64,000 nt of DNA from assembly GCF_003334765.1 (NCBI RefSeq), contig NZ_QOWT01000012.1. One strand, given 5' to 3'. The DNA comes from Escherichia coli (GTDB lineage: Bacteria > Pseudomonadota > Gammaproteobacteria > Enterobacterales > Enterobacteriaceae). Numbering within the stretch: the first letter of the stretch is position 1; each line of letters opens with the position of its first letter. Positions 28,326 to 31,300 of the stretch are shown here, piece after piece. The position numbers were made by a program.

Positions 28326-31300
28326 TAGCAATGCGAATATTTGTCTACGGCAGTTTACGCCACAAACAAGGCAACAGTCACTGGATGACCAATGCCCAGT
28401 TACTGGGCGATTTCAGTATCGATAACTACCAGTTGTATAGCCTGGGCCACTATCCAGGCGCAGTTCCGGGGAACGGAACAGTACACGGTGAAGTTTATCG
28501 TATTGACAACGCCACGCTGGCCGAACTTGATGCCTTGCGCACCAGGGGCGGTGAATACGCGCGCCAGTTGATTCAGACGCCGTACGGGAGTGCATGGATG
28601 TACGTTTATCAACGACCCGTCGATGGATTAAAGCTAATTGAAAGCGGCGACTGGTTAGACAGGGATAAGTAATAATAAAAGCACGCCACCTTCGGGTGGC
28701 GTTGTTTTATGCGATGTATCTCGCGATTTTTTTTTGTAACTTTTCCATCTTTTGCTTTTCTCTCCGAGCCGCTTTCCATATCTGCAATCGCATAAAAAAC
28801 TCTGCTGGCGTTCACAAATGTGCAGGGGTAAAACGGGGGCACGCTTTGAACGGTGAGTATGAGTGAGGTCGGCTAACTTCCAGCAAGTGGCTATGAACAG
28901 CAAAATGGTGGTCGGGTTTGCTTGTTCTTACCGTTCAAGCCTTGCAACCGCTGAGAATAATGATGGTGGAATAGAGAGTTTATTTATCGCGGGCATAAAA
29001 AAACCCTTACTAACCGAAGCCCGGCGTTCAGGGTTATTGCGCTAGAAGAACTTATTTATTCTTTGCGCGCTCGAAGGAAGCAACGATTTCAGCTTTAGCG
29101 GCTTCTGCGTTTTCCCAACCTTCAACTTTCACCCACTTGCCTTTTTCGAGGTCTTTGTAGTGCTCGAAGAAGTGAGCGATCTGCGCTTTCAGCAGCTCTG
29201 GCAGATCGTTAACGTCTTTAATGTGATCGTATTCTTTGCTCAGCTTTGTGTGCGGAACAGCAATCAGTTTCGCATCTTCACCGGCTTCGTCGGTCATTTT
29301 CAGAACGCCAACCGGACGGCAACGGATCACAGAACCCGGCTGCAGCGGGTACGGAGTCGGGACCAGTACGTCAACCGGGTCACCGTCCAGAGACAGGGTG
29401 TGGTTGATGTAACCGTAGTTGCACGGATAGAACATCGCGGTGGACATGAAGCGGTCAACGAACAGTGCGCCGCTCTCTTTGTCGATTTCGTATTTGATCG
29501 GATCTGCGTTAGCCGGGATCTCAATAACAACGTAGATGTCTTCCGGCAGATCTTTACCCGCAGGGACGTTGAGTAAGCTCATGTCTGTTTCCTTTAAAAA
29601 TATGTGGCAAACAAGTGCCGAGTATTATAGCCAACTCGCGCCGAATGTCTTCGCTTGTTTTCGTCTTCATTTTCCTTTTTCGCCAATTTTAAGACGGTAT
29701 ACAGAGCAGGAAAATCCATAACCGTAGCCGCATTTTTCATAGTGAGATGAAAGCGATTACAAACTTGTGATTAACGTTTTATTTACTTCTTTGAAGTGTG
29801 ATGTAACGCAATCCGTTACATAACGAATTGTCTATAGTTTTTTCGCGAACATCTTTTCACCAATAATAATTACCCCGACGAGGACAACCCTATGTGGAAA
29901 CGCTTACTTGTAGTCTCTGCAGTCTCGGCAGCCATGTCGTCTATGGCGTTGGCCGCTCCATTAACCGTAGGATTTTCGCAGGTCGGATCGGAATCTGGCT
30001 GGCGCGCCGCAGAAACCAATGTGGCGAAAAGTGAGGCCGAAAAACGCGGAATTACGCTGAAAATTGCCGATGGTCAGCAAAAGCAGGAAAACCAGATTAA
30101 AGCGGTACGTTCCTTCGTCGCGCAAGGGGTGGATGCGATCTTTATCGCTCCGGTGGTTGCGACTGGTTGGGAACCGGTATTAAAAGAGGCGAAAGATGCC
30201 GAAATCCCGGTCTTCTTGCTCGATCGTTCTATTGATGTGAAAGACAAATCTCTCTATATGACCACCGTCACTGCCGACAACATTCTCGAAGGCAAGTTGA
30301 TTGGTGACTGGCTGATAAAAGAAGTGAATGGCAAACCATGCAACGTGGTGGAGCTGCAGGGCACTGTTGGGGCCAGCGTCGCCATTGACCGTAAGAAAGG
30401 CTTTGCCGAAGCCATTAAGAATGCGCCAAATATCAAAATTATCCGCTCGCAGTCAGGTGACTTCACCCGCAGTAAAGGCAAAGAAGTCATGGAGAGCTTT
30501 ATCAAAGCGGAAAACAACGGCAAAAACATCTGCATGGTTTACGCCCATAACGACGACATGGTGATTGGTGCAATTCAGGCAATTAAAGAAGCGGGCCTGA
30601 AACCAGGCAAAGATATTCTGACAGGTTCTATCGACGGCGTACCGGATATCTACAAAGCGATGATTGATGGCGAAGCGAACGCCAGTGTTGAACTGACGCC
30701 GAATATGGCAGGTCCCGCCTTCGACGCGCTGGAGAAATACAAAAAAGACGGCACCATGCCTGAAAAGCTGACGCTGACCAAATCCACCCTTTATCTGCCT
30801 GATACCGCAAAAGAAGAGTTAGAGAAGAAGAAAAATATGGGGTATTGAGGGTTGCTATGCCTGATGCCGATTCGTAGGCCGGATAAGGCGCTCGCGCCGC
30901 ATCCGGCGGTGGTGCGCTGAAGCCTGATGCGACGCTTACCGCGTCTTATCATGCCTACTGGGAGCACGCTTTACACCGGGGGAAACCATGACGACTAACC
31001 AACACCAGGAGATCCTCCGCACCGAAGGATTAAGTAAATTTTTCCCCGGCGTCAAAGCGTTAGACAACGTTGATTTCAGCCTGCGCCGCGGCGAAATCAT
31101 GGCGCTGCTCGGTGAAAACGGGGCAGGAAAATCAACGCTAATCAAAGCATTAACTGGTGTATACCACGCCGATCGCGGCACCATCTGGCTGGAAGGCCAG
31201 GCTATCTCACCGAAAAATACCGCCCATGCACAACAACTCGGTATCGGCACCGTCTATCAGGAAGTAAACCTGCTACCCAATATGTCGGTCGCTGATAATC

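Follow-up and report, generated by a model that had tools for sequence, protein, structure and literature searches.

The chpS-chpB pair of Escherichia coli K-12 (also called chpBI-chpBK), a type II toxin-antitoxin (TA) module of the MazEF/PemIK family, is the closest described system to the locus treated here. The ytfP-ppa interval is known in three states: according to Pastorello et al. 2013 (PMC3735183), 53% of 47 genomes carried chpBS, 15% carried esiB and 32% carried neither. The ChpB-ChpS pair has been associated with phylogroup B1 (PMC5422975). The uneven distribution and the decay of chromosomal TA systems of E. coli are reviewed in PMC7167474, and an example given there is ccdO157 (Mine et al. 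2009, as cited in PMC7167474), a chromosomal TA system found either intact or degraded by deletions and nonsense mutations.

A stretch of 64 kb of DNA, referred to below as the window, was analysed around this interval. It belongs to E. coli, its ytfP-ppa segment being matched in all 5,426 complete genomes of the species, many of them at 100%. With a probability of roughly 0.9, the interval can be explained as the scar of a ChpS-ChpB operon which was destroyed by two deletions, the resulting allele being old, common and shared, with the same junctions, by Escherichia albertii. The absence of chpSB is in itself an ordinary variant that has already been published (PMC3735183), and the only detail added here is the old relic.

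The ytfP-ppa spacer and the chpB relic

The convergent spacer between ytfP and ppa occupies positions 28673-29051 of the window and measures 379 bp (Table 1). In the K-12 reference (strain CJ236, locus L001) ytfP lies at 1501-1842, chpS at 2054-2305, chpB at 2299-2649 and ppa at 2729-3259, and the corresponding spacer, with chpS-chpB inside, amounts to 886 bp. The flanking genes are nearly the same in both: ytfP differs from K-12 by 1 nt in 342 and ppa by 10 nt in 531, with 8 of these 10 differences placed within the 3' 213 nt which adjoin the spacer. The YtfP protein WP_001219160.1 is common to K-12 CJ236 and strain 1916D6, and the ytfP DNA of 1916D6 is identical to that of the window. The first-pass annotation had described the spacer as convergent and 379 bp long, which agrees with the ends of the ytfP and ppa reading frames; the K-12 order that it gave, ytfP-chpS-chpB-ppa, is the one present in CJ236, and it was also right that the spacer holds no intact toxin or antitoxin ORF. 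Its statement that chpSB is absent holds as far as a functional operon at the locus is concerned, but the locus still contains some 125 bp from within chpB, the terminal codons of this gene and about 130 bp of the sequence found 5' of chpS in chpSB-positive genomes.

Table 1. Coordinates of the genes, signals and relic segments in the window.
Feature	Position	Strand	Basis or remark
tamB	24549-28328	+	
ytfP (gamma-glutamylcyclotransferase family), left flank	28331-28672	+	ORF call
ytfP intrinsic terminator hairpin ACGCCACCTTCGGGTGGCGT and T-run	28683-28712	+	terminator scan, RNA fold
Upstream spacer of the chpSB unit, retained	28703-28835	+	homologous to K-12 L001 ~1873-2004
5' deletion junction, 9 nt filler GGGGCACGC	28836-28844	+	alignments to K-12
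chpB relic (pseudogene fragment), chpB nt 19-145 (codons 7-49)	28845-28969	+	stops and frameshifts, 72.4% identity to K-12
60-aa ORF with GTG start, judged spurious	28863-29045	+	on the relic, in neither chpB-derived frame
3' deletion junction at direct repeat TGGTGG, then GAA TAG	28964-28974	+	alignment to K-12
chpB-ppa spacer, retained	28975-29051	.	77 bp, ~93% identical to K-12
ppa terminator hairpin and U-run	~28996-29035	-	AACCCU...AGGGUU, then U7
ppa (inorganic diphosphatase), right flank	29052-29582	-	ORF call
ytfQ	29892-30848	+	

Alignment to K-12 divides the region into two homology blocks with 128 bp between them. The left block (window 28331-28835, K-12 L001 1501-2004) ends 50 bp 5' of the chpS start codon, and the right one (window 28964-29582, K-12 2639-3259; 97.4% identity overall) starts inside the last 11 nt of chpB. 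The 128 bp in the middle are not novel sequence and derive from chpB as well. By blastn, window 28879-28943 matched chpB at 80% identity (E 3.5e-9), and a gapped alignment extended the match to 28845-28969 against chpB nt 19-145 at 72% identity. The local alignment score of the relic against chpB was 48, compared with 9.8±1.3 (maximum 17) in 2,000 shuffles (z = 28) and with 13 for the reverse-complement control. At the protein level, tblastn placed ChpB residues 15-42 on window 28868-28951 at 50% identity and across an in-frame stop, the E value being 9e-6 when the 501 bp of 28600-29100 were searched and 0.005 when the search covered the window in full; residues 33-48 aligned to the relic in another frame. 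No credible similarity to K-12 ChpS was found by tblastn in 28600-29100, where the best E value was 0.6. A degenerate chpSB remnant recovered by tblastn, which the first-pass annotation had named as grounds for refuting its reading, is thus present for the toxin gene and not for the antitoxin gene.

The identity of the relic amounts to 72.4% with K-12 chpB, 73.2% with chpB of E. whittamii and 60-63% with chpB of Lelliottia and Enterobacter asburiae, and no extended alignment was found to chpB of RIT691, Pseudocitrobacter or Kluyvera. The relic is therefore closest to Escherichia chpB and is derived from a gene of the Escherichia type. Homology to the chpSB unit amounts to about 260 of the 379 bp of the spacer when the retained upstream part is counted together with chpB nt 19-145 and the region of the chpB stop. 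Judged from these alignments, the spacer appears to be the scar of a former chpSB operon and not an empty site.

Sequences on both sides of the relic have been kept. The hairpin of the ytfP terminator (28683-28702; -24.5 kcal/mol on folding, z -4.75) recurs in all genera examined, with or without an occupant at the site, and is native to the locus. The retained upstream spacer is partly alignable across chpSB-positive genera and is absent where the spacer is truly empty (100-170 bp). On the other side, the ppa terminator is likewise native; its motif occurs also in Citrobacter amalonaticus, which is without chpSB, and the folding energy of its hairpin is not unusual.

At the 5' junction the window reads GGGGTAAAACG up to 28835, then the filler GGGGCACGC, and then TTTGAACGG, which begins at chpB nt 19. 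About 312 bp of K-12 (L001 2005-2316) are missing at this point: a segment with the palindrome GTTATACTTTGTATAAC and the ribosome-binding site, the whole of chpS and chpB nt 1-18. The same junction was observed in the loci L004 and L009, in the esiB allele L003 and in the E. albertii locus L011. Microhomology was looked for in the form of GGTAAA, which is found both 5' of the promoter and where chpB starts, and was not convincing. The palindrome GTTATACTTTGTATAAC stands directly 5' of chpS in all aligned chpSB-positive loci of Escherichia, Lelliottia, Enterobacter, Pseudocitrobacter, Kluyvera and RIT691; with regard to this conservation and position, and to the -10-like TATACT which it bears, it is likely the chpS operator. 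It was not found in the spacer, its sole match in the window at up to 3 mismatches being at 59205, which is at chance level. Residual chpS promoter fragments, the other thing that had been suggested as worth looking for, are consequently not represented by any core promoter or operator, the palindrome being inside the 5' deletion.

At the 3' junction about 200 bp are missing, i.e. chpB nt ~146-340 (codons ~49-113). In K-12 the sequence GCTGGTGG is followed by CCCC at chpB nt ~145 and GGTGGTGG is followed by AATAA at the stop, while in the window GATGGTGG is followed by AATAG, so that the final chpB codon and stop read GAA TAG in the window and GAA TAA in K-12.

The operon was destroyed by point decay and by two deletions, one of about 312 bp (promoter/operator, chpS and chpB nt 1-18) and one of about 200 bp within chpB. 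The latter deletion may have arisen by slippage or illegitimate recombination between the two TGGTGG copies. The 3' deletion, by which most of the toxin fold was removed, was probably the earlier of the two, or at any rate did not follow the loss of chpS, because the loss of a labile antitoxin with a stable toxin kept would be a disadvantage to the cell. With the toxin inactivated, antitoxin and promoter would have become dispensable and could have been lost in the 5' deletion.

Frequency and age of the relic allele

The relic allele, counted as the 128-bp segment at a coverage of at least 80%, is present in 2,329 of the 5,426 complete E. coli genomes (43%). An identity of at least 99% was noted for 1,613 of the genomes and a variant of about 94% for about 650; the relic of C41(DE3), a BL21(DE3) derivative, is identical. 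The K-12 chpSB segment was found in 3,098 of the 5,426 genomes (57%). Since the two counts sum to the total, the two sets are essentially disjoint, and nearly all genomes carry either the relic or chpSB, which are the two major alleles of the species; it follows from these complementary counts that genomes with the relic are without a K-12-like chpSB elsewhere. For the strain studied here, of which 64 kb were seen directly, the near-perfect complementarity argues against a second chpSB-like copy at another place.

The third occupant of the site, esiB, was present in 188 of the 5,426 genomes. In the single esiB allele examined, that of strain A37 (L003), esiB lies at 2483-3955 with a copy of the ytfP terminator hairpin on either side, and the relic follows downstream of it with the same junctions. 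In this one case the relic allele is the background into which esiB is inserted. The window itself is not an esiB allele, having a single hairpin copy and a 379-bp spacer in comparison to the 1.47-kb esiB between two copies.

Two genomes, HH45 and HH97, were considered as possible carriers of intermediate alleles and rejected, being 2 of 5,426 and both from one study. They have K-12-like chpB nt 19-119 on a backbone of the relic type, with chpS replaced by strings made near-exclusively of G and C; in HH97 the 3' half of chpB is also replaced by such strings. This has the look of an artefact, produced when mixed alleles were merged into a consensus or polished.

Other species were surveyed by means of a YtfP scan, with one genome per species, which resulted in 80 loci. 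Intact chpSB is present at the same site in E. whittamii and three more Escherichia lineages, Lelliottia sp., Enterobacter asburiae, Enterobacteriaceae RIT691, two Pseudocitrobacter and Kluyvera genomosp. 1, and the ChpB proteins of the surveyed chpSB-positive species are 64-97% identical to that of K-12. Among about 56 loci with ppa inside the fetched 3 kb, about 27 have a truly empty spacer of 100-170 bp with two terminators only, and in the others the site is taken up by chpSB, by a relic or by unrelated cargo. Two of the surveyed genomes share the relic of the window, with identical junctions: E. albertii NBRC 107761 and 'E. coli' SCPM-O-B-8794, the latter representing a species-level lineage of its own. 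A further relic was observed in Citrobacter sedlakii; it is independent and corresponds to ChpB residues 63-107, the part which is deleted in Escherichia, and decay of the module has therefore happened more than once.

Between the window and the one E. albertii genome, the relic is 87.3% identical (12.7% divergence), and the identity at third codon positions is 87.7% in ytfP and 87.6% in ppa (12.3-12.4% divergence). The relic thus changes at the neutral rate, without selective constraint, and the agreement of its divergence with the third positions of the flanks fits neutral decay since before the split of E. coli and E. albertii. The shared junctions and this divergence would fit one deletion history with its origin before that split. 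The relic is at the same time 28% diverged from intact chpB, more than twice its own divergence between E. coli and E. albertii; for this excess, either the inactivation is much older than the split, or the relic comes from a chpB allele that was already divergent.

Other readings of the spacer

It is possible, although unlikely, that the relic arose in one event and then crossed species borders among E. coli, the cryptic clades and E. albertii by homologous recombination. The spacer has indeed been shuffled by recombination: in Escherichia sp. MOD1-EC7003, which is chpSB-positive, the left spacer resembles that of the window, and in the esiB/relic allele it resembles that of K-12. Furthermore, the divergence between K-12 and the window, of which the regional mean is about 1.7%, is elevated only in the spacer and at the 3' end of ppa. 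Against a horizontal spread stands the divergence of the relic from E. albertii, which matches that of the flanking third positions, whereas a much lower value would be expected after a recent transfer.

Unlikely as well is the idea that intact chpSB and the relic form a trans-species polymorphism which predates the E. coli / E. albertii split and has been kept at intermediate frequency (57% and 43% in E. coli) by balancing selection. If this were true, selection would act on the module, for instance through a benefit in phage defence or stress set against a cost, instead of drift and recombination. A broad peak of divergence around the indel, as for a long-maintained haplotype, was looked for, but ytfP is almost invariant (the single difference given above); the confinement of the elevated divergence to the spacer and the ppa 3' end means that any larger block has been eroded by recombination.

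It is very improbable that the spacer has acquired a new function, with the 60-aa ORF as a small protein or the relic as a regulatory RNA. This ORF, reported in the first-pass annotation as being without TA character, does exist with a GTG start; it is not in a chpB frame, but it sits on chpB-derived DNA, of which the description took no account. In favour of a coding role, its frame is uninterrupted in SCPM-O-B-8794 and E. albertii as well as in the window. It is, however, frameshifted with several stops in relic alleles of the esiB type and of the L004 type, the latter being the second major variant of the relic, and about 12 of its 60 residues are changed between E. coli and E. albertii, with the DNA evolving at the neutral rate. 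No match was obtained in the NCBIfam scan of four spacer ORFs (60, 56, 77 and 82 aa) or in the Rfam scan of 27500-30500 at E ≤ 1, and no plus-strand promoter was indicated in the spacer by a sigma-70 consensus scan, although that scan also missed the K-12 chpS promoter and is hence uninformative. As for the original function, stops occur in all three frames across the relic, the chpB start codon is missing, and the locus has neither an antitoxin gene (for the AbrB/MazE-like ChpS of about 83 aa), nor an intact 116-aa ORF for ChpB, a toxin of the PemK/MazF family, nor an operator. On the grounds of its sequence, then, the strain is ChpSB-negative at this locus, with nothing left that could be expressed as toxin or antitoxin.

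That the lineage never had chpSB, and that K-12 gained the module by insertion into a naive empty site, can hardly be maintained: many Enterobacteriaceae do have a ytfP-ppa spacer of 100-170 bp with two terminators only, and the horizontal movement of TA cassettes is known (PMC5120126), but the spacer of the window is 379 bp long, its homology to the chpSB unit extends over about 260 bp, and the similarity of the relic to chpB lies far outside the shuffled scores (z = 28). A recent, strain-specific deletion of chpSB, usable as a strain marker, is favoured by nothing except the size difference from K-12 and may be dismissed, as the allele is identical at 99% or more in 1,613 genomes, has same-junction variants in about 700 more, occurs also in E. 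albertii, and has a relic 28% diverged from chpB, a gene which, where intact, is conserved at 97-98% identity over nt 19-145 among Escherichia species. For the same reason the suggestion of the initial annotation that the absence marks the strain was abandoned, the allele being present in 2,329 E. coli genomes, in E. albertii and in another Escherichia lineage.

Relation to described modules

The scar of a ChpS-ChpB operon thus remains the preferred explanation, and some consequences can be drawn from it. About 43% of complete E. coli genomes are without ChpSB, and results obtained in K-12 on 'the ten TA systems' are not transferable to them. When the locus is scored as 'empty' in annotation or in pan-genome studies, a pseudogene which records the history of the module is overlooked. 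The relic, with its fixed junctions and neutral rate, is a handy small neutral marker. It is also a clear example of how a chromosomal TA module can be lost, although the finding as a whole is of little weight for biology in general.

In comparison to the chpS-chpB operon of K-12, the window has the same ytfP-ppa position and has kept the stop region and both flanking spacers; it is without chpS, the operator/promoter and the chpB start, about 200 bp of chpB are gone, and the rest of the gene is 28% diverged. In terms of the three-state locus, the window represents the 'neither' state, and the proportions are of a similar order, with about 39.5% neither, 57% chpBS and 3.5% esiB among the 5,426 genomes. 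In the available portion of PMC3735183 the 'neither' state is described as the absence of both genes, with no chpB remnant mentioned there; in the present analysis the relic was found both in the 'neither' allele and in the single esiB allele examined. The chpSB module resembles ccdO157 in being a type II TA system at a fixed intergenic site which is intact in some strains, although the family and the locus are different. Unlike in the case of ccdO157, the junctions of the chpSB relic are fixed and shared between species of Escherichia, as a single old event, and not a series of recent ones, would imply.

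Cargo between ytfP and ppa

The spacer between ytfP and ppa is a cargo hotspot throughout the Enterobacteriaceae, as seen at eight comparison loci from Citrobacter, Salmonella arizonae, Enterobacter and Silvania (L017, L018, L034, L035, L042, L047, L052 and L055). In some species the cargo comprises an ORF of 375-403 aa with a small partner ORF, in others a protein of 526-541 aa which appears chemoreceptor-like, and in further species a conserved ORF of 107 aa, apparently hydrophobic, accompanied by neighbours of 156 and 194 aa; these descriptions are impressions gained from the sequence. 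All of these cargo ORFs are bounded by the same two terminators of the spacer.

Coordinates of the features described
Feature	Sequence	Position
Relic allele split by IS1A, E. coli FDAARGOS_1250	NZ_CP069571.1	477168-479196
Chimeric spacer, E. coli HH45	L005	2361-2525
Chimeric spacer, E. coli HH97	L087	
cysQ-ytfJ replacement	window	19170-19173
K-12 segment replaced	L086	9497-10721
Divergence peak, 5.8%	window	~32500-33000
Divergence peak, 7.0%	window	~39000-39500
Spacer with chpB relic, Citrobacter sedlakii NBRC 105722	L028	3343-3686

Interrupted and chimeric spacers in E. coli

Among the genome matches to the ytfP-ppa segment, E. coli FDAARGOS_1250 carries the allele with the decayed chpB fragment (the relic allele) split by an IS1A element and otherwise identical. 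Chimeric spacers were found in only two of the 5,426 complete genomes searched, HH45 and HH97, both originating from one Canadian wastewater study. They comprise a relic-type backbone bearing K-12-like chpB nt 19-119, with nearly pure G/C stretches standing in place of chpS and, in HH97, in place of part of chpB as well; these spacers look artefactual, as though mixed alleles had been blended during assembly or polishing.

Other differences from K-12

In the cysQ-ytfJ interval about 4 bp stand in place of 1,225 bp of K-12 which include ytfI, and hence this gene is also absent from the window strain. Two local peaks of divergence from K-12 (500-bp windows) rise above a regional mean of about 1.7% and reach the height of the peak at the chpSB spacer.

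A chpB relic in Citrobacter sedlakii

An independent chpB relic is present in a 344-bp spacer of C. sedlakii, where tblastn with ChpB (E 7e-5) aligned residues 63-76 at 71% identity and residues 81-107 at 44%. The C. sedlakii relic retains the part of chpB that has been deleted from the Escherichia relic.
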